The notes beneath the pieces are model-generated. The model searched no databases, was not told the DNA's origin, and saw only the letters and a program-made list of their open reading frames with translations. This document shows, one piece after another, positions 20,620-40,905 of a DNA stretch of 64,000 nucleotides. Each line of letters begins with the position of its first letter. Positions within the stretch are counted from its first letter, which is position 1. The DNA is taken from positions 128,001 to 192,000 of the forward strand of contig CAVSOU010000010.1 in NCBI GenBank assembly GCA_963729625.1, given 5' to 3'. The stretch comes from an uncultured bacterium. GTDB lineage: Bacteria; Chloroflexota; UBA5177; JANWHV01. The position numbers and the translations under genes are program-made.

Positions 20620-20851
20620 CGTGATCCCTCCTGCGCGTCAGCCTCACTCGGCAGTCTTTGCTCAGTGCGTTCATGGCGCTCAGAAGGCCTGAGTGCCGGC
20701 CTGCCGTTTCAGGCCCGAGTATAGCACGTGCGGTCTGGGCAAATGCCACCTGCTACACTGTAGGGTTGTAGCTGATCGAAGGCATGCCGTGGGTAACGTT
20801 GTTTACCGGCGCCCTTGCATTGCAGACAATGTCGGTTAGGAGTTGGCAGGC

Positions 20852-21310
20852 ATGGTAAAGGTCGTATTGAACAAGGACGTGGCAAATCTGGGCAAGGCGG
20901 GAGAAGTCAAGGATGTCTCTCCTGGCTACATGCGCAACTTTCTCATTCCGCAGGGCCTCGCGGTGCTTGCCACGTCCGGCGCGCTGAAGTCGCTGGAAAC
21001 GCGGCGGTCGCAAATTATCAAGGCGCACGAAAAGGCGCGTTCCGATGCGCAATCGCTGGCCTCACGTCTCGCTGACGTCTCGCTCGTGTTCCAGGTACGA
21101 GTAGGCGAGCAGAACCGTCTCTACGGATCGATCACGAGCAAAGATATCGCGGATGAGTTGGCGCGCGCTGCCGAGATCACCGTTGATCGACGTGATATCG
21201 AGCTACCGGAGGCACTCAAGACCCTGGGCAACTACAGCGTACCGGTGCGATTGGGCCACGACGTTAAGGCTTCCATCAACGTTACGCTGCAGGAGGCGGC
21301 CTCCGCTTGA
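20852..21310 (+). CDS. rplI: 50S ribosomal protein L9
   Basis: DVANLGKAGEVKDVSPGYMRNFLIPQGLA and RLYGSIT. Confidence 0.97.
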   Translation: MVKVVLNKDVANLGKAGEVKDVSPGYMRNFLIPQGLAVLATSGALKSLETRRSQIIKAHEKARSDAQSLASRLADVSLVFQVRVGEQNRLYGSITSKDIADELARAAEITVDRRDIELPEALKTLGNYSVPVRLGHDVKASINVTLQEAASA

Positions 21311-21312
21311 TC

Positions 21313-22656
21313 ATGGAGACACTCGCGGCTGGAGGCGAAGAGCATCTACCGCGCAGTCTAGAAGCTGAACAGGCCGTCTTGGGCAGTCTGCTTCTTGATC
21401 CCGATGCCATCATCGAAGTTACCGCGATTTTGCGACCGGATGACTTCGCGCATGATGCCCATGCAGTTACCTACCGCGTCATGGTCGACCTGTACGAGCA
21501 GCGCCGACCGGTAGACGTTATTACCGTCCTGGAGGAGGTCGAACGCCGCGACCTCCTTCAGCGCGCCGGCGGTAGGGGTTACGTGCTTTCGCTGGTCGAC
21601 GTCGTACCCACTGCCGTCCACGTCGAGCACTACGCGCGGATCGTGGAGCGACTTGCGGTTCTTCGCCGGCTGATACGTGCCGGTGGCCAAATTGTCAGCA
21701 TCGCTCAACGCGACGGCGTCGAGGTCGAGGAGGCGCTGAACGATGCCGAAGAAGTACTGTTTGCCGTGGCCCAGGGCAGGAGCAGCGCCGGCTTTGTGCC
21801 GATTCGCGAGGTGCTTACAACGATCCTCGAGCAGGCCGACTACGTACACGAACACCGCGGAGCCATCCTCGGCACCCCCACCGGTTTCGTCGATCTTGAC
21901 AAGATTCTGGGCGGGTTGCAGCGTTCGGACTTGATCATCGTCGGCGCCCGGCCTGCGCATGGCAAGACCGCTCTGGCCCTTGGCATGTGCCATAATGCTG
22001 CTGTGCGGTTCAAACAGCGGGTTGCCCTTTTTAGCCTGGAAATGTCAAAGGAGCAGCTCGTGCAGCGCTTGTTGTGTATGCAGGGCAGACTCGACAGCGG
22101 GCGCCTGCGGTCCGGCTATATTGACGAGGCAGAGTGGGGCAGGTTGATCGAGGCTGCGGGCGTCCTGTCTGAAACACGCATCTTCATCGACGATTCAGCC
22201 GGGATTACTCCCGCTGAGATGCGCAATCGTGCGCGCAGGTTGCAGGCCGAGCAAGGACTGGACCTCATCGTGGTCGACTACCTGCAGCTGATGTCGGGCC
22301 GAGCGTCCGAGAATCGTGTGCAGGAGATCAGTGGGATCTCTCGCGCTCTCAAGATTCTTGCCCGCGAGCTGAACGTGCCGGTGGTCGCTCTCTCGCAGGT
22401 GTCCCGCGGTGTGGACTCGCGTACTTCGCACGTTCCGCTGCTCTCGGATCTGCGCGAGAGCGGCAGTATCGAGCAGGACGCCGACGTCGTACTATTCCTT
22501 TGCCGTGAAGAAATGTACGATCCCGAGACCGAAAAGCAACACATCGCCGATCTCTATGTGGCCAAACACCGTAACGGGCCGACCGGGCAGCTTTCGCTGT
22601 ACTTTGACAAAGTTCAGACTCGATTCCGGGACCTTGAGGCCCGCGCGCCGCTATGA
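21313..22656 (+). CDS. dnaB: Replicative DNA helicase
   Basis: EAEQAVLG, GARPAHGKT, VVDYLQLM, SDLRESGSIEQDAD, KHRNGPTG; no intein. Confidence 0.97.
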   Translation: METLAAGGEEHLPRSLEAEQAVLGSLLLDPDAIIEVTAILRPDDFAHDAHAVTYRVMVDLYEQRRPVDVITVLEEVERRDLLQRAGGRGYVLSLVDVVPTAVHVEHYARIVERLAVLRRLIRAGGQIVSIAQRDGVEVEEALNDAEEVLFAVAQGRSSAGFVPIREVLTTILEQADYVHEHRGAILGTPTGFVDLDKILGGLQRSDLIIVGARPAHGKTALALGMCHNAAVRFKQRVALFSLEMSKEQLVQRLLCMQGRLDSGRLRSGYIDEAEWGRLIEAAGVLSETRIFIDDSAGITPAEMRNRARRLQAEQGLDLIVVDYLQLMSGRASENRVQEISGISRALKILARELNVPVVALSQVSRGVDSRTSHVPLLSDLRESGSIEQDADVVLFLCREEMYDPETEKQHIADLYVAKHRNGPTGQLSLYFDKVQTRFRDLEARAPL

Positions 22657-23387
22657 GCGGCTTTGCCGGATTTTACCCAAGCAAAGCGGCGAACACGCCG
22701 GTACCGGATGCGTTCTTCAGCATACTGCTTCCCGAGATCGATTCCCTGGTCGAGCTGAAGGTGACTCTGCATCTGTTTTGGCTGCTCGCCCGTCGAACCG
22801 GCCTGCCAAAGGCCGTGGCGCTCGATGACTTGCAGGCCGATCGCTTACTCCTGAGGTCGCTCAAGCCCTCGCGTGGACCGCGAACTGCCGAGGATTGCCT
22901 TCGTGAGGGTCTCGAGCTTTCGGTGACGCGTGGCACAGTGTTGATGGTGTCGCTCGGCCAAACCGAGAAGGATCTGCGCCGGTGGTATCTCATCAACACA
23001 CCGGCCAGCCGCGATGCCCTCGAGGCGCTACGGCGCGAGGAGATCGACCCTTCCGCTGCCCTCGGCGAGCAGGTGGGGGCCGTCGAGATCGTTCGCATCT
23101 ATCGCCCAAATATCTTTACATTATATGAGCGGAACATCGGCGTGCTGACGCCGCTTATCGCGGACCGACTTCGCGACGCGGAGTTGACCTATCCGCACGA
23201 GTGGATAAGCGACGCCATGAGGCGCGCGGTCGAACAGAACAAGCGCAATTGGGCGTACGTTGCCGCAATTCTCAAGCGGTGGGAGGCTGAGGGGAAGGCC
23301 AGTGGAATCGATCGGCGACATTCTGAAACGCCTGGAGATTCGGAGAAATACACCGGAGGGCGATACGGCCACGTCGTCGAATCGTGA
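22653..23387 (+). CDS. DnaD domain protein
   Basis: NIFTLYERNIGVLTP and AVEQNKRNWAYVAAILKRW DnaD signature. Confidence 0.88.
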   Translation: MSGFAGFYPSKAANTPVPDAFFSILLPEIDSLVELKVTLHLFWLLARRTGLPKAVALDDLQADRLLLRSLKPSRGPRTAEDCLREGLELSVTRGTVLMVSLGQTEKDLRRWYLINTPASRDALEALRREEIDPSAALGEQVGAVEIVRIYRPNIFTLYERNIGVLTPLIADRLRDAELTYPHEWISDAMRRAVEQNKRNWAYVAAILKRWEAEGKASGIDRRHSETPGDSEKYTGGRYGHVVES

Positions 23388-24141
23388 GTCCGCGCCGGTC
23401 TGCGATCGATGTGGAGGCGCTGGCTACCTGCGCCTTGACGTGCCGGTGGACGATCCCGGCTTTGGTACGATCGTGCCGTGCGGCTGCAAGGAGCGCGAGA
23501 TTACCGAGCGTCGGATGCAGCGCCTGCTCGAGAAGTCGAACCTGCGCGCTCTCTCAAGCATGACCTTCGAGTCGTTCCTCGTGGACGCGCCGCAGCGCAA
23601 CGCCTTCAAGCGCGCGCAGCAATATGCAGCCAATCCCGATGGCTGGCTCGTGATCATGGGCGGCTATGGTACAGGCAAGACCCATCTTGCCGCGGCTATC
23701 GGCAACTATCGGCTGGCAATGGGCGCGCCCGCCCTGTTTATGGTCGTTCCGGACCTGCTTGACCACCTGCGCTCGGCGTACGCACCTGGTAGTGAGCTGG
23801 GATATGACGACTTCTTCGAAGGAGTTCGCGAAGCCCCTCTTCTTATCTTGGACGATCTCGGGACCCAGATCAGTACCCAGTGGGCGACGGAGAAGCTCTA
23901 CCAGCTCTTTAATCACCGCTATATCCACCGCCTGCCAACGGTGATCACGACGAACAGCTCGCTCGACGAGATTGGCGGCCGGCTTGCCTCGCGGATGTCG
24001 GACCCCGTGATAAGCACCTGCGTGACGATCGATTCGCGCGACTTCCGAGGCGGTGTTGGCGATTCGGACGAGCCTGGCTCGTCGGCTTCACGGCAAACCC
24101 GGCGCCGGCCACGCGGCATCGAATATACCGACCGCCCCTGA
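23302..24141 (+). CDS. dnaC: DnaC/IstB-like helicase-loader ATPase
   Basis: Zn motif CDRC..CGC, Walker A GGYGTGKTHLA, LILDDLG, VITTN. GTG start at 23302 overlaps the dnaD-domain gene. Confidence 0.88.
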   Translation: MESIGDILKRLEIRRNTPEGDTATSSNRESAPVCDRCGGAGYLRLDVPVDDPGFGTIVPCGCKEREITERRMQRLLEKSNLRALSSMTFESFLVDAPQRNAFKRAQQYAANPDGWLVIMGGYGTGKTHLAAAIGNYRLAMGAPALFMVVPDLLDHLRSAYAPGSELGYDDFFEGVREAPLLILDDLGTQISTQWATEKLYQLFNHRYIHRLPTVITTNSSLDEIGGRLASRMSDPVISTCVTIDSRDFRGGVGDSDEPGSSASRQTRRRPRGIEYTDRP

Positions 24142-24162: not shown

Positions 24163-24192
24163 TTGACACAGTGGCTTCCCGACCAAGATACT
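24163..24192 (+). promoter_or_regulatory. Candidate sigma70 promoter for the uORF-secDF transcript
   Basis: Perfect TTGACA, 18-nt spacer, GATACT. Confidence 0.5.
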
Positions 24193-24257
24193 AGTGAGGA
24201 CTGGATGAGCAGCCTGCGGCGGCAGCAATCCGCGCGGTTCGAGGTAACTGAAACCTG

Positions 24258-24701
24258 ATGGGTGTGCGTTCCGTACCGTCGATATTGCGCACACTTGCTA
24301 TCTTCGTCGCTTCGCTCCATGCGACTGGCGGTGGCCTTGGCAGTGTGGTCGAAGCCCATGACCTCAGGCACGCGCCGGCGCAGCCCGTCGTACGAACCGA
24401 TGTGGCAGAACCAAGCTCGAGAACCGGCGCAGACGAGATCGCCGGCCAGACGTTACTGTTTGCCACCGCCGAACTGTCCTCACCGTCTCTACCAGGCTCT
24501 GTCGTTCGCCCTTTCGATTCGTCGCCGGTGCTGGCGCCTGGGCGGCGACCGATGGCCAGAGACCCGCGCTCGGCTCATTCCGCACAACAGGAGCCGCTAG
24601 CGCGCCAGGTCCGTGCGACCCAGCCGACTGTCGTTGAGTGGCTGGACATTGTCCTGACTTCAAGTCCAGCGAACGACCCACAGCGTATTCGCGCTCCGTA
24701 G
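24258..24701 (+). CDS. Putative secretion-monitoring translation-arrest peptide upstream of secDF (ends QRIRAP-stop)
   Basis: Signal-peptide-like N-terminus, low-complexity spacer, C-terminal IRAP resembling RAPP/RAGP arrest motifs, position directly before secD, adjacent anti-SD hairpin. Confidence 0.7.
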   Translation: MGVRSVPSILRTLAIFVASLHATGGGLGSVVEAHDLRHAPAQPVVRTDVAEPSSRTGADEIAGQTLLFATAELSSPSLPGSVVRPFDSSPVLAPGRRPMARDPRSAHSAQQEPLARQVRATQPTVVEWLDIVLTSSPANDPQRIRAP

Positions 24702-24703
24702 TC

Positions 24704-24811
24704 CGTCTCCTCCCAGTACGCGATGGCGTCCGGCAGCGTGGCCAGGCTCAATTGCGCCCAAGCTGCTCGGCCGAGTCCATACTCTTCACGTAGCACACTG
24801 AGAGGTAGACG
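24704..24811 (+). promoter_or_regulatory. Stem-loop predicted to sequester the secD Shine-Dalgarno sequence
   Basis: CGTCTCCTCCCAGT (24704-24717) pairs with ACTGAGAGGTAGACG (24797-24811): 13 bp, one mismatch, one bulge, covering GAGG. Confidence 0.7.
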
Positions 24812-24812
24812 C

Positions 24813-26213
24813 ATGCGTCAGCGAGCCCAACTATTCTTGATAGGGATTATCGTCCTGACATTCGCCGCCGTCCTGGTAGACCTTGCCGGCACGGTAGGCA
24901 ACTTTAAGGTTTTCGGTCACGGCACGGCGATCCATCAAGGTCTGGACCTCACAGGCGGCCTGAGCATGGAACTGAAGGCGACCGACCATAAGGCCGCCAC
25001 GAGCGATGCCATGGCAGCCGCGATTGACATCATCACCAAGCGCGTCAACGCCTTTGGCGTGTCCGAGCCGATCGTAACGCAGCTTGGAAGTGACGCGATC
25101 GATGTCGAGATGCCTGGCGTCAGGGATCCGGAGGTCGTGCGCCAGACGATCGGCAGCACTGGCCAGCTCGTTCTCTACGGGATGGGCAGCCTGACCCCAC
25201 TGCAGGACGGCGCCACGTTTCCTTACTCAAACACGACCACGCTCTGTGATGCCAAGAACGCGCCGACTCCGTGCGTGGTCATGAAAGGAAGCGAGCTCGA
25301 TTCGAGCCAGATCGCGAATCAGTTCGATCAGTACGGCCAGCCAATAGTAACATTTGGCGCGAAGGGCGGCGCCGTCGGCCGCCTTGGGACTTACACGACC
25401 GACCACGTCGGGGAATACATGGCGTTTGTCCTCGACGGGAAAGTGGTGACCGATCCCAAGATCCAGTCGGCTATCACCGGCGGGAACGGTGAGATCAACA
25501 ACATCGGCAGCAGTGACACCGCCAAGGCCATTGCCATTCGTCTCAAGTACGGCGCGCTGCCCATCGCCTTCACACCGGAAGCCAGCAGCCAGATCAGCGC
25601 CACGCTGGGATCGCAGTATGTCCATGACAGCATAACCGCCGCCATCGTCGGCATTATCGTGGTTATGTTCTTCATGGTCGCGAATTACAGGCTGCCGGGA
25701 CTCGTTGCCGACATTGCACTGTTGATCTACACGTCATTAGCATTCGCAGTGTTCAAGCTCTGGCCGTTCAGCGGCAGCGGCGCCAGCGGCATCACGCTCA
25801 CGCTGGCCGGAATCGCCGGGTTCATCCTCTCGATTGGTATGGCGGTTGACGCAAACGTGCTCATCTTCGAGCGGCTAAAAGAGGAACTGCGTACGAACAA
25901 GACACTCGGAGCTTCTATCGAAGCCGGGTTCAATCGCGCGTGGACGAGTATTCGGGACTCGAATGTGAGCACGATCATCACCTGCTGCGTGCTGTATTGG
26001 TTTGGCCAGAATTACGGCGCGACCGTGATCGCGGGTTTCGCCACTACGCTCGGCATCGGCGTAGGAGTATCGATGTTCACGGCGATCGTGATCACGCGCA
26101 CGTTCCTGCGCGCACTCGTGCGAAGCAACAGCAGCTATCACCCGAAGTGGTTTGGCGCCGGTCTGGAGAACGTCAGTCCACAGACGCGGCCGACCAAGGG
26201 AGGGCAGGGCTAA
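24813..26213 (+). CDS. secD: Protein translocase subunit SecD
   Basis: GLDLTGG, RVNAFGVSEP, LKYGALP, LSIGMAVDANVLIFERLKEE, DSNVST; GAGG SD before ATG 24813. Confidence 0.97.
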   Translation: MRQRAQLFLIGIIVLTFAAVLVDLAGTVGNFKVFGHGTAIHQGLDLTGGLSMELKATDHKAATSDAMAAAIDIITKRVNAFGVSEPIVTQLGSDAIDVEMPGVRDPEVVRQTIGSTGQLVLYGMGSLTPLQDGATFPYSNTTTLCDAKNAPTPCVVMKGSELDSSQIANQFDQYGQPIVTFGAKGGAVGRLGTYTTDHVGEYMAFVLDGKVVTDPKIQSAITGGNGEINNIGSSDTAKAIAIRLKYGALPIAFTPEASSQISATLGSQYVHDSITAAIVGIIVVMFFMVANYRLPGLVADIALLIYTSLAFAVFKLWPFSGSGASGITLTLAGIAGFILSIGMAVDANVLIFERLKEELRTNKTLGASIEAGFNRAWTSIRDSNVSTIITCCVLYWFGQNYGATVIAGFATTLGIGVGVSMFTAIVITRTFLRALVRSNSSYHPKWFGAGLENVSPQTRPTKGGQG

Positions 26214-26259
26214 TGTTTGTGCAGGCTGCCGGACGCTTCACGGCTGGGGGATCACGCTC

Positions 26260-27306
26260 ATGATTAACATCATCAGGTATCGCTACTGGTATTTCCTGTT
26301 CTCGCTGTTGATCATCGTTCCTGGTTTCGCGTTCTTCCTAGCGGGAGGGCTGAAGCTCGGAATCGACTTTACGGGCGGCACAGAGCTCACGCTGCGGTTC
26401 AGCACGGTCCAGGCCAGCGCACACCTGGAGGATCAGATTCGTAGCGCGGTGATCAGCGGCGCCAAGCTAAGCGAAGCGGAGGTGATTTCGTCGACGCCTC
26501 TCGGCGGCGCAGCAAACAACGGCGCCCACTATCTCGTGCGCATTCCATTCATTGGCGACTCGCCGCAGAAGCTGGCGGCCGTCCTGGCGCCGCTCTATCG
26601 CGAATACGGTTGCGGCTCGCTCGTGAAGACCACGGCTCCCGGGCTTTACAAGGTGCCATTGCCCACCTGCAAGAACTTGGCGCTCGAGCAGGAAACCGAC
26701 GTCGGCGGCGCAATTGGCTCGCAGATTCGTTCGCGCGCCGCGACAGCGGTGGTCATCGCCGCCGCGTTCATCCTGCTGTATATATCCTTTGCCTTCCGCA
26801 AGGTGGCTCACCCGTTCCGCTACGGAACGTGCGCCATCATCGCATTGCTGCACGACGTTCTGGTGGTCATGGGGCTTTTCGCAATCTTTGGCAGGGCGCT
26901 CGGCGTGACCGTGGACTCGTTGTTTGTCACGGCCGTGCTCACCGTTATCGGTTTCTCGGTGCACGATACAATCGTTATCTTCGACCGAATTCGTGAGAAT
27001 ATGGCGCGCCGTATCGGCGAGCCCTTCGAGCTTGTCGTCAACAACGCCATCCTTCAGTCGATGGCACGCTCGTTGAACACGTCGCTGACCGTGCTGATGA
27101 CACTGACCGCGCTCTTGCTGTTCAGTGGGGCCAGTATCCGGATTTTCGTCGTGACGCTTCTTATAGGAATTACAAGTGGGACATATAGCTCGATCTTCAA
27201 TGCGAGCCCACTCTTAGTAGTGTGGGAGAACGACGAGCTAGGGATAGGCAAGTTTCTTCAGCGGTTCAGGAGGAGCAAGACCGGGCGGCCGGCTACCGCG
27301 CGTTAA
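26260..27306 (+). CDS. secF: Protein translocase subunit SecF
   Basis: LGIDFTGG, ALLHD, IGFSVHDTIVIFDRIREN, RSLNTS, GTYSSIF. Confidence 0.97.
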   Translation: MINIIRYRYWYFLFSLLIIVPGFAFFLAGGLKLGIDFTGGTELTLRFSTVQASAHLEDQIRSAVISGAKLSEAEVISSTPLGGAANNGAHYLVRIPFIGDSPQKLAAVLAPLYREYGCGSLVKTTAPGLYKVPLPTCKNLALEQETDVGGAIGSQIRSRAATAVVIAAAFILLYISFAFRKVAHPFRYGTCAIIALLHDVLVVMGLFAIFGRALGVTVDSLFVTAVLTVIGFSVHDTIVIFDRIRENMARRIGEPFELVVNNAILQSMARSLNTSLTVLMTLTALLLFSGASIRIFVVTLLIGITSGTYSSIFNASPLLVVWENDELGIGKFLQRFRRSKTGRPATAR

Positions 27307-38231: not shown

Positions 38232-40905
38232 GGCACTGCTTGTACTTCCTACCGCTTCCGCACGGACACGGATCGTTGCGGCCGACTTTGGACGACGGGC
38301 CGGTTGTCTTTGGCGCGCCCATGCTTGTTCGAGTCATCGGGCCCTCCGAGCGCACGACCTGCCGAGCAGCCGGGCTGGCGACGGCGCTTGCCCCCATAGC
38401 CGCATCGGGTGAATGAGGACCGCTTGCGATCGCGGACATGGTGGTCGGCGGCGCGAACGTCGGCATAGGGGGTGGCGGCGGCTGTTGCTGCACTTCGAAT
38501 TGATAAATCACGTGCACTACCTCATGGCGAATCATCTCCTGCAGGTCGCCAAACATAACCGACGCGGTCTTGCGGAACTCTACCAGTGGGTCGCGCTGAC
38601 CGGCGGTTTGGAGCTGAACGCCTTCCCGCAGCTCGTCGAGGGCGTCGATATGCTGAATCCAGCGCCGATCGATAATCGACAGCAGGATGAATCGCTCCAC
38701 CTGGCGCACGATCTCGGAGCCAATTCGCTCCTCCCGCCGCTCATAGGCGAGATCGGCCTCGTCCAGGACCTCCTGGATAACGTCAGCCTTCTTCTGCGCT
38801 CGAATGTACGTGTCGTTGAACTCTGGCGGAGCAGGGAATACAGCGCCTAGCGCCTTCAGCATGCCGTCGACATCCCAGTTGTCGGCATACGTGTCCGCGA
38901 GATGGATTTCCGCGATGCTCGTAAGCTCCTCGTGCACCATCTGGATGATAATGTCGGAGACATCCTCACCTGCCAGGATTCGCTGCCGATCGGCGTAGAT
39001 AACGGCACGCTGGCCTGCTATCACATCGTCATACTGGACAAGGTACTTGCGAGCGTCGAAGTTCCAGCCCTCGACCTTCGTCTGCGCGCTTTCAATGCTT
39101 CGGCTGACCATGGTGTTCTCGATGGGCTCGTCGTCTGGCAAACCAAGCCTGTCGAGAATGCCCTTCACGCGGTCCGATCCCACGCGTCGCATGAGGTCGT
39201 CCTCAAGCGACACGTAGAAGCGAGAGGATCCCGGGTCACCTTGCCGGCCCGATCGTCCTCGAAGCTGGTTGTCGATCCGACGTGACTCGTGACGCTCGGT
39301 GCCGATAATATGAAGGCCGCCGACACCAACAACCCCTTCGCCAAGCTTGATGTCCGTGCCTCGGCCAGCCATATTCGTCGCGATGGTCACAACGCCGCGC
39401 TGTCCGGCCCTTTCCACGATCGCGGCTTCGCGTTCGTGCTGCTTGGCATTGAGCACGCTATGGGCAACGCCGGCGCGAAGAAGCAGCGTAGATAGGAGCT
39501 CCGACTTCTCAATCGACGTGGTGCCGACGAGAACGGGTTGGCCGATCTCTTGCTTCTGCTTGATTGCCTGGACGACCGCATTGAACTTCGCCGCTTCCGT
39601 CTTGAAGACGATGTCGTTCATATCCTTGCGAATCATCGGCATGTTCGTGGGAACAGCCACCACGTCGAGCCGATAGATCTTGAGGAACTCCTCCTGCTCC
39701 GTGGTCGCCGTGCCGGTCATTCCGGCCAGTTTCTTGTAAAGGCGGAAGTAGTTCTGGAAGGTAATCGTGGCCTGGGTAATGTTCTCGCGTTCGATGCGGA
39801 CGCCTTCCTTGGCCTCCAGCGCCTGGTGCAACCCCTCGCTGAACCGCCTTCCCTCGAGCGCGCGCCCCGTGAACTCGTCGACTATTATCACCTTGCCGTC
39901 GCGAACGAGGTAATCCTTATCGCGCTTGAAGATGGCGTGCGCCTTCAAAGCCTGTTCGAGGTAATGGGCCAGCTCGTAGTTCTTCTCGTCATAGATGTTC
40001 TCGACGCCAAGCAGACGCTCCATGTGCGTGATTCCGCTTTCGCTCAGCGTCACTGCCCGCATCTTATGATCGACTTCGTAGTCGTCACCTTCGCGCAGTT
40101 TCGGCACTAGCCGCGCGAAGTGATAGTACGTCTCCGCGGACTCCTCAGCCTGGCCGCTGATGATCAGCGGCGTCCGCGCTTCGTCGATCAGGATGTTGTC
40201 GACTTCGTCGACGATACCGTAGGCCAGTGGCCGCTGCACGCATTGGTCGAGCGACTGGGCAAGGTTGTCACGCAGGTAGTCAAAGCCGAATTCGTTATTC
40301 GTGCCGTAGAGGATGTCCGAGTCGTAGGCTTCTTTCTTGGTGGTCGGACGAAGATGACGAAGGCGTTCGTCAGTGGGATGCTCGTCGGTGTAGTCCGGGT
40401 CGAACGCAAATGACGTGTCGCCGGCCCCTCCGCTTGAAATAATGCACCCCGTCGACACCCCGAGCAGATTGAATATTCGGCCGTTCCATCCGGCATCACG
40501 GCGGGCCAGATAATCGTTGACAGTAACCAGGTGCACGCCCTCGCCGGTAAGTGAATTCAGGTACGCAGGAAGCGTGGCGACCAGTGTCTTACCCTCGCCT
40601 GTCTTCATCTCGGCGATCTTGCCGGCATGAAGCACGACCCCGCCGACAAGCTGAACGTCAAAAGGGCGCTGGCCGAGCGTCCTCCGCGCAGCCTCGCGCA
40701 CATTCGCAAACGCTTCTGGCAGCAGGTCGTCAAGACTCTCGCCGTCCTTGTAACGCTGGCGCAGCTCATCAGTTTTCTCGGCGAGCTGCGCGTCCGACAA
40801 CTCGACAAAGCCAGGCTCGAGCTCGTTAATTTCGTCGACGACCGGTTGGATCCGCTTGAGCTCCTTTTCGTTTGGATCTCCGAGGATCTTGGTGAACCAG
40901 GGCAT
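38218..40905 (-). CDS. secA: Protein translocase subunit SecA
   Basis: EMKTGEGKT, VDEVD, ATNMAGRGTD, QLRGRSGRQGDPG, SEC-C GRNDPCPCGSGRKYKQCHG; AAGGA SD before ATG 40905. Confidence 0.98.
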   Translation of the reverse strand: MPWFTKILGDPNEKELKRIQPVVDEINELEPGFVELSDAQLAEKTDELRQRYKDGESLDDLLPEAFANVREAARRTLGQRPFDVQLVGGVVLHAGKIAEMKTGEGKTLVATLPAYLNSLTGEGVHLVTVNDYLARRDAGWNGRIFNLLGVSTGCIISSGGAGDTSFAFDPDYTDEHPTDERLRHLRPTTKKEAYDSDILYGTNNEFGFDYLRDNLAQSLDQCVQRPLAYGIVDEVDNILIDEARTPLIISGQAEESAETYYHFARLVPKLREGDDYEVDHKMRAVTLSESGITHMERLLGVENIYDEKNYELAHYLEQALKAHAIFKRDKDYLVRDGKVIIVDEFTGRALEGRRFSEGLHQALEAKEGVRIERENITQATITFQNYFRLYKKLAGMTGTATTEQEEFLKIYRLDVVAVPTNMPMIRKDMNDIVFKTEAAKFNAVVQAIKQKQEIGQPVLVGTTSIEKSELLSTLLLRAGVAHSVLNAKQHEREAAIVERAGQRGVVTIATNMAGRGTDIKLGEGVVGVGGLHIIGTERHESRRIDNQLRGRSGRQGDPGSSRFYVSLEDDLMRRVGSDRVKGILDRLGLPDDEPIENTMVSRSIESAQTKVEGWNFDARKYLVQYDDVIAGQRAVIYADRQRILAGEDVSDIIIQMVHEELTSIAEIHLADTYADNWDVDGMLKALGAVFPAPPEFNDTYIRAQKKADVIQEVLDEADLAYERREERIGSEIVRQVERFILLSIIDRRWIQHIDALDELREGVQLQTAGQRDPLVEFRKTASVMFGDLQEMIRHEVVHVIYQFEVQQQPPPPPMPTFAPPTTMSAIASGPHSPDAAMGASAVASPAARQVVRSEGPMTRTSMGAPKTTGPSSKVGRNDPCPCGSGRKYKQCHGRS

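Follow-up and report, generated by a model that had tools for sequence, protein, structure and literature searches.

A candidate RAP-type Sec-monitoring arrest peptide encoded directly upstream of secDF in a genus of Chloroflexota

We analysed a 64,000-nucleotide stretch of DNA (the window) from an uncultured Chloroflexota bacterium (assembly GCA_963729625.1, contig CAVSOU010000010.1; genome G000), in which a short upstream open reading frame (uORF) precedes secD and secF. The uORF (24258..24701, + strand) starts with ATG and comprises 147 codons and a TAG stop, and its last codons (24681-24701; CAG CGT ATT CGC GCT CCG TAG) read QRIRAP-stop. After a gap of 111 nt it is followed by secD (24813..26213, +; Pfam SecD_1st, SecDF_P1_head and SecD_SecF_C), the sole copy found in G000, and by secF (26257..27306, +; Pfam SecD_SecF_C with 5e-50, Sec_GG). 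The start of secD is most likely ATG 24813, with GAGAGG at 24800-24805 ahead of it. An earlier reading made from the DNA letters alone (the sequence-only reading) had described a 147-codon ORF before secD ending QRIRAP-TAG, and our analysis confirmed this, with the N-terminus exactly as quoted there. We interpret the uORF as a leader gene that is translated and forms an operon with secD and secF. We propose, with a probability of about 0.65, that it encodes a Sec-monitoring arrest peptide of the RAP (Arg-Ala-Pro) type, which in the subclade of the window would stall the ribosome at termination.

Relatives of the uORF product were collected by a word-indexed search, which gave three 147-residue relatives at ~50% identity, from genomes of the same genus (three further relatives), and by two profile searches, one of 1.84 billion representatives with 13 matches and a second one with 18. 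Scans of public contigs added only one new locus with secD context (L033), besides L032, a contig that is cut, and L031, which duplicates G003. With one duplicate removed, the family consists of 27 distinct full-length sequences of 142-166 residues, and even remote protein homologues at 18-30% identity preserve the start, the length and RAP. In all five loci with downstream DNA (G000, G001, G003, G004 and L033), secD lies 95-117 nt 3' of the uORF on the same strand. The sequence-only reading had suggested comparing the ORFs that precede secD in relatives, in search of an N-terminal signal and a conserved C-terminal RAP(P/stop) on either side of a variable middle; the relatives do keep such an ORF (5/5 loci), in which a conserved signal-like N-terminus and a variable middle are followed by RAP (26/27 sequences). 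Because 34 of the 29,204 six-frame ORFs of 60-250 aa in the genome end in RAP-stop, such an ending is unremarkable on its own, but the position of the uORF before secD combined with its conservation in relatives is far beyond chance.

Among species-representative genomes, profile matches were confined to a single genus, covering all five of its genomes (the window's included), five of 21 in the class and five of 401 sampled in the phylum, and a second draw of phylum genomes returned the same five. G018 enters these genome surveys as one negative row only. Two extra profile matches (E 0.002-0.005) touch the low-complexity middle alone. At 26 other Chloroflexota secD loci no analogous RAP-type uORF was found; the loose-motif matches there were either frames without a signal-like start or tails of upstream genes. 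A search of language-model features placed a SecM cluster (PF06558) at rank 27 of the 30 nearest clusters (score 0.93), which is a weak lead only.

The C-terminal heptad PQRIRAP (24678..24698, +) contains RAP at 24690-24698, with the Pro codon CCG (24696-24698) in the proposed P site and the TAG stop (24699..24701, +) as the proposed A-site codon of the stalled ribosome. In the 26 sequences with RAP near the C-terminus, the motif is followed by Cys (11), a stop (six), Asp (five), Asn (three) or Ser (one), and by Pro or Gly in none (0/26). The six RAP-stop sequences, namely those of the window and G001 and four metagenome proteins, all have Ile before RAP. Members with a sense residue have Ala or Thr at that place and carry 5-7 further residues after Cys, Asp, Asn or Ser, and an x-x-V-x-x-G-N pattern recurs in these tails. 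Judged from this alignment, it is the window's subclade, rather than the family as a whole, that is marked by a stop after RAP. The sequence-only reading had taken the stop as a replacement for the A-site Pro of RAPP; this did not hold, since only 6/26 sequences have a stop and most relatives continue from RAP with Cys, Asp, Asn or Ser and a tail, while the R-A-P-P of ApdA/ApdP is found in none (0/26 with Pro after RAP).

The residues found after RAP can be set beside published A-site mutagenesis of three RAP peptides (Sakiyama 2021, PMC7897499). According to the sections of that paper used here, ApdA and ApdP need Pro, the arrest of ApcA (RAP-G) allows Cys, Asn, Thr, Ser, Asp and Ala to replace the A-site Gly, and A-site Cys ranks second in the assays for ApcA and ApdP. 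All 20 sense residues that follow RAP in the present family lie within this permissive ApcA set, and the commonest of them, Cys, is an otherwise rare amino acid. We regard the residues after RAP as a specific and independent agreement with a putative arrest function, albeit not as a statistical test, because the sequences are related.

A second yardstick is the screen of >30,000 genomes by Fujiwara 2024 (PMC10987492), which defined the RQH family of RAPP-like uORFs before secA, secDF and yidC; toeprints of RQH representatives placed the third motif residue in the P site. Compared with the RQH consensus as worded in that paper, (R/Q/H)-(A/G/D)-(P/G/S)-(P/G), our family agrees at the first three positions (R-A-P) and departs at the fourth. 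The quoted query motifs of the survey include RAP*, RAPC, RAPD and RAPS, variants noted in the ApcA cluster, and here RAPC occurs in 11, RAPD in five, RAPS in one and RAP-stop in six sequences. RAPN (three sequences) is outside the quoted query list but labels one Bacteroidales row in the survey table. The survey further counted, in its quoted wording, motifs present in more than two uORFs of one order; here the motif is present in 5/5 genomes of one genus. The same study reports that uDF_NAP-stop and uA_NSP-stop stall with a stop codon in the A site. Against their N-(A/S)-P-stop pattern, in which residues -3 and -1 are essential, six of our 26 sequences end in Pro-stop with Arg and not Asn at position -3; by analogy the mechanism may match that of the NAP-stop peptides, while the family differs.

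The signal-like N-terminus (codons 1-33; 24258..24356, +) consists of a basic n-region, a hydrophobic core of ~11 residues and small-x-small sites. In 18/18 sequences scanned, the n-region charge was +1 to +5 and the best 11-residue Kyte-Doolittle window 1.7-2.1, with sites of the ARA-G or VEA- type, and the family N-terminus fits a putative Sec signal peptide. It is also the most conserved part of the family: across 18 aligned sequences, the fraction of sequences with the majority residue was 0.68-0.77 for residues 1-26, 0.28-0.41 for residues 46-140 and 0.72 for the last seven. Between the two ends lies a variable spacer (codons 34-140; 24357..24677, +; majority fraction 0.28-0.50), and from the hydrophobic core to the Arg of RAP the distance is 109-133 residues across the family, in keeping with Fujiwara 2024 (PMC10987492), where Sec monitors are reported to have spacers that are long and variable. 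The Pro/Ser/Ala-rich spacer of the sequence-only reading is present, but only moderately rich in these residues (36% Pro+Ser+Ala in residues 34-140). Relatives with a tail after RAP begin M-R-R-(R/H)-x-(F/I/V)-P-R-W, in which the twin Arg looks faintly like a twin-arginine translocation (Tat) signal, and the window's subclade has R-V-R. A Tat signal was considered and set aside; as the twin Arg of the tail-bearing relatives is lacking in the window and its subclade, Sec is likelier than Tat.

Several lines of evidence bear on whether the uORF is a protein-coding gene. Its frame is the sole one of six without stops in all five loci with DNA; other frames and strands were rejected, having stops in at least one of the five loci, with minus-strand ORFs misfitting the codon-position pattern. 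Differences per codon position in the uORF were 57/41/94 between G000 and G001, whose secD genes are 88% identical, and 22/14/34 between G004 and G003. By the Nei-Gojobori method, the proportions of nonsynonymous and synonymous differences (pN and pS) were 0.34 and 0.68 for the first pair, with a ratio of the corresponding rates (dN/dS) of ~0.25, and 0.13 and 0.25 for the second, with dN/dS 0.47. The uORF is real and under purifying selection. One weak point of the gene call is the G+C content at third codon positions (GC3), which is 0.64 for the uORF and 0.70-0.76 for its neighbours. Relatives in metagenome-assembled genomes of Chloroflexota are called "hypothetical protein" by gene callers, and the 18 family members compared with Pfam and NCBIfam models were all without a match.

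At the C-terminal motif, the R, I and P codons of RIRAP differ between G000 and G001, in each case synonymously. Two metatranscriptome libraries yielded short contigs of related strains over 24626-24832, from the end of the uORF to the start of secD. Their depth is low, by the 31-letter rule neither reaches across the start of secD, and they may stem from carried-over DNA; they give no more than a hint of expression and were used solely for the pattern of synonymous changes. In run X13, from a related strain, 4/4 differences within the seven PQRIRAP codons were synonymous third-position changes (24680, 24683, 24686 and 24695), and run X8 had a synonymous difference at 24695, too. Replacements in the related-strain contigs lie just 5' of PQRIRAP (24660, 24663 and 24677). 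The TAG at 24699-24701 showed no differences in these contigs and is also TAG in G001. Selection at RIRAP acts on the peptide and not on the RNA.

We also folded the mRNA between the uORF and secD. The ribosome-binding site (RBS) of secD (24797..24815, +; ACUG-AGAGG-UAGAC) includes the Shine-Dalgarno sequence GAGAGG and ATG 24813-24815. In the minimum-free-energy fold, a segment 4-16 nt past the uORF stop (24705..24717, +; GUCUCCUC.CAGU), which lies in the footprint of a ribosome stalled at the stop, pairs with 24797-24810 (ACUG.GAGG.AGAC), the Shine-Dalgarno sequence of secD included, and we refer to it as a candidate anti-RBS segment. In the free mRNA of both G000 and G001, the post-stop segment is predicted to pair with the secD Shine-Dalgarno and AUG region. 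The footprint was modelled as a ribosome over P-12 to P+15 at the Pro codon of RAP, and the RBS window as -18 to +6. With the footprint in place, the predicted RBS opening energy fell from 17.3 to 10.5 kcal/mol in G000 (a gain of 6.9) and from 20.6 to 11.0 kcal/mol in G001 (a gain of 9.6). Shuffles of the 28-nt footprint equalled this gain in 1/70 cases for G000 and 0/70 for G001, with mean gains of 0.6 and 1.5 kcal/mol, respectively. When the position of the ribosome was scanned, the opening effect was confined to the end of the uORF, ~-3 to +27 nt of the Pro codon.

The tail-bearing loci L003 (the G004 locus), L004 (the G003 locus) and L033, in which uORF and secD are 95-100 nt apart, have two hairpins, a strong GC-rich one right behind the uORF stop and another ahead of the secD Shine-Dalgarno sequence, with no U-tract; their A-R-x-A-R-A-P codons themselves form a GC hairpin. 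These predicted hairpins might act as an attenuator in place of an RBS mask.

If the uORF encodes a Sec-monitoring arrest peptide, its signal-like N-terminus would target the nascent chain to the Sec translocon. The step halted at RAP would be release by release factor 1 (RF1) at UAG in the window's subclade, and peptide-bond formation with Cys, Asp, Asn or Ser in most relatives. The paused ribosome would cover the 13-nt anti-RBS segment, the Shine-Dalgarno sequence and AUG of secD would stay open and secDF would be translated. Under efficient export, pulling on the spacer of ~110-125 residues would end the pause quickly, the long-range helix would re-form and secDF translation would fall. A more specific proposal, which we put forward tentatively and at less than even odds, is that of one family with two arrest modes on the same R-A-P chain. 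Most members would undergo elongation arrest at a non-Pro A-site residue, mostly Cys, and the window's subclade would undergo termination arrest at UAG with RF1, its mRNA having been rewired with an anti-RBS segment right behind the stop. The family would then be the first Sec monitor catalogued in Chloroflexota, and one placed over the cell's only secDF.

The secretion-monitor reading has come through every comparative test that we ran on the sequences, and three other explanations were weighed against it. The uORF might encode an ordinary small secreted or membrane-anchored protein that is co-transcribed with secDF and in which RAP and any tail have a role in the mature protein, such as sorting or binding, with no stalling. 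We consider this unlikely. Conservation peaks at the signal-like N-terminus and at RAP, whereas the presumed mature part is hypervariable with many indels, which is the reverse of ordinary secreted proteins. Moreover, none of 18 members has a Pfam or NCBIfam domain, the residue after RAP is limited to arrest-permissive A-site residues or a stop, and the predicted anti-RBS helix lies exactly at the ribosome footprint. The recurrent x-x-V-x-x-G-N in the tails, conserved islands in the middle of the RAP-stop subclade and purifying selection over the whole length in close pairs (dN/dS 0.25-0.47) speak for such a protein nonetheless. The middle is itself under some purifying selection in these pairs (dN/dS 0.46), which would fit a function of the mature protein and counts against an arrest peptide. 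A leader with plain translational coupling could dispense with the conserved signal-like N-terminus, with the spacer of >100 residues and with the invariant R-A-P, in which the amino acids stay the same while codons change synonymously, and we hold it to be quite improbable. In such a leader any ribosome finishing the uORF would briefly melt the RBS-masking helix, with no arrest and no export sensing, and RAP would be kept for something like slow, unregulated termination. Three points favour plain coupling: a C-terminal Pro is generally a slow terminator; in silico, a ribosome placed anywhere from ~-3 to +27 nt relative to the Pro codon is enough to open the RBS; and for the tail-bearing relatives no RNA switch is predicted. 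Finally, the uORF could be untranslated, with its conservation explained by an RNA leader or by frames that happen to be open in GC-rich DNA. Long spurious ORFs do abound in a genome of ~62% G+C, the GC3 of the uORF is below that of its neighbours, and the RNA evidence consists of short contigs from RNA libraries only. We nevertheless consider this explanation scarcely credible, given the sole frame open in 5/5 loci, the excess of third-position differences with pN < pS, the protein homologues at 18-30% identity that keep start, length and RAP, and the exclusively synonymous codon changes in RIRAP.

Further observations weigh against the arrest-peptide reading itself. At the protein level, the signal peptide was judged by hydropathy heuristics alone, and the segment that would occupy the ribosomal tunnel is poorly conserved beyond ~8 residues upstream of RAP. 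As for the sample, 21/27 sequences are proteins only, without genomic context, the G002 copy is cut, and the sequences behind all family tallies are related, so that the counts are not independent events. One member of the 27 (P0010) is without RAP; it matches P0008 and P0021 over the first ~65 residues, then diverges completely, and may be a frameshifted or decayed copy. A-site Pro is indispensable for ApdA and ApdP, and the imino group of this Pro is central to the structural model: RAPP arrest is explained through this group by Morici 2024, in the available part of which release factors are not discussed. A stop or Cys in the A site would therefore require either an ApcA-like tolerance or a different block of termination. 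On the RNA side, the whole-region fold z-scores (-1.5 to -1.6) are not significant, and the mean Shine-Dalgarno pairing probability barely shifts upon stalling (0.81 to 0.75), the opening energies being more informative. In the tail-bearing G004, G003 and L033 the footprint gains just 1.5-2.1 kcal/mol; as this is not above the shuffle means of G000 and G001, RBS opening would not account for the regulatory output in tail-bearing loci. The distance of 12-13 nt from the uORF's own Shine-Dalgarno-like site to its ATG is, in addition, unusually long.

That site, GAGGT (24241..24245, +), keeps its long spacing in the relatives. Further upstream, a sigma-70-like promoter for uORF-secD-secF (24163..24192, +; TTGACA, 18 nt, GATACT; 10/12 matches) lies 22 nt past the stop of a DnaC-like gene that ends at 24141, between that operon and the uORF. 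One such site was found where 0.2 were expected in shuffles, and a TTGACA..(G/C)ATACT pair is also present upstream of the uORF in G001 and G004. Directly 5', at 20843-24141, is a replication cluster of rplI, a helicase gene (dnaB), a gene of the DnaD-like kind (PF07261) and one for a DnaC/IstB-like loader; as listed, the ORFs of the latter two overlap. The DnaC-like to secD synteny is also found in a second family of the class, which is without the uORF.

The place before secD is one where YajC could be expected, but YajC was ruled out, with no PF02699 match for the uORF, for 18 family members or anywhere in G000 (87% complete). The secA gene of the window lies on the opposite strand (~39685-40893, -), and no signal-bearing or RAP-ending uORF was found before it. 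In G000, uORF and secD share one frame with TAG 24699-24701 alone between them (an open frame of 653 aa with one TAG). A programmed read-through fusion of the two was considered and dropped, and the shared frame is probably a coincidence, because the two genes are in different frames in G001.

If correct, the arrest-peptide reading would extend Sec-monitoring arrest peptides to Chloroflexota, a phylum from which the 2024 survey listed >500 genomes, with no candidate in the 12 supplementary files consulted. The main interest lies in the series of residues after RAP and in the position of the family before the only secDF copy found, not a spare paralogue. The natural series of Cys, Asp, Asn, Ser and stop independently mirrors the A-site mutagenesis of ApcA, and with the RAP-stop members one can ask whether release factors, too, are blocked in their action by the RAP conformation. 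Should the two-mode proposal be true, the family would supply natural matched variants for how RAP blocks both peptidyl transfer and peptide release. For annotation, "hypothetical proteins" before secD can carry the label of candidate regulatory leaders.

With respect to earlier cataloguing, which the sequence-only reading had left open, Pro-stop arrest before secDF and the RAP* query were already known, and the family and its phylum are absent from the 2024 candidate files as far as these were available. Neither stop-codon arrest behind a C-terminal Pro nor RAP with a residue other than Pro behind it is a new kind, since both appear in the parts of Fujiwara 2024 (PMC10987492) used here. In 12 supplementary files of that paper, "Chloroflex" occurs only in the list of screened genomes (at least 512 rows) and no candidate from the phylum is given; in the candidate table there, RAPC is absent and RAP does not stand as a whole word in any row. 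A full-text search found no paper on such a peptide in Chloroflexota; its scope was the text of papers, with the survey's figure of nine phyla and the bioRxiv supplements outside it. The sole co-occurrence it returned was, in the text available, a figure legend on motif frequencies (PMC12992588). The uORF family would thus appear to be an unannotated, lineage-restricted new family of a known mechanism.

Of the layout proposed by the sequence-only reading, the signal-like start, spacer and C-terminal RAP before secD stood, but the resemblance is to ApcA or the Bacteroidales RAP-X peptides rather than to ApdA/ApdP, which that reading had drawn on. ApdA and ApdP (RAPP, upstream of secDF2), as described in the published text, have a signal peptide, a spacer and a P-site R-A-P and precede secDF, to which correspond the signal-like N-terminus, the spacer, the putative P-site R-A-P and the location of our family; they differ in their strict A-site Pro and in regulating a second secDF paralogue, whereas here a single secD copy was found in the genome. 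SecM, VemP and MifM are likewise monitoring substrates in which the stalled ribosome opens the Shine-Dalgarno sequence of a downstream Sec or YidC gene. They have other arrest motifs and belong to other families, and SecM needs an A-site Pro; SecM does have I-R-A in common with our family, close to where arrest occurs; its arrest motif is given in PMC7897499 as FXXXXWIXXXXGIRAGP. Alike in the proposed mechanism are uDF_NAP-stop and uA_NSP-stop of Bacteroidota, uORFs before secDF (or secA) that end in x-A/S-Pro-stop, were located by toeprinting with the stop codon in the A site and, in the account available, need the stop for arrest. Their termination arrest is what we propose for the RAP-TAG of the window. 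Those peptides have an essential Asn at position -3 where our family has Arg, and families and phyla are unrelated; unlike in those peptides as reported, stop and sense-codon variants occur here within one homologous family.

ApcA (RAPG, upstream of yidC2 in Actinobacteria; PMC7897499) arrests with RAP-tRNA(Pro) occupying the P site and a residue other than Pro in the A site, as proposed here for the tail-bearing members. As described there, it monitors YidC and combines a transmembrane anchor with a spacer that is short, in contrast to the signal-like N-terminus, the spacer of 109-133 residues and the secDF genes found here. The uA_RQH_Bacteroidales peptides in the excerpted rows of Fujiwara 2024 (PMC10987492) have (K/R)IRAP followed by S, N or E, whereas Cys, Asp, Asn, Ser or a stop follows here, and they lie upstream of secA in Bacteroidota, whereas the present family lies before secDF in Chloroflexota. 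No overall sequence similarity between the two was found, a search with a hidden Markov model having returned only our own family. They are nevertheless, as here, small uORFs before a Sec gene, in which a long variable spacer separates an N-terminal localisation signal (signal-like in our family) from a C-terminal (K/R)IRAP, and the residue after this motif is not Pro. By analogy, then, the family looks like ApcA or the Bacteroidales RAP-X peptides rather than like ApdA/ApdP.

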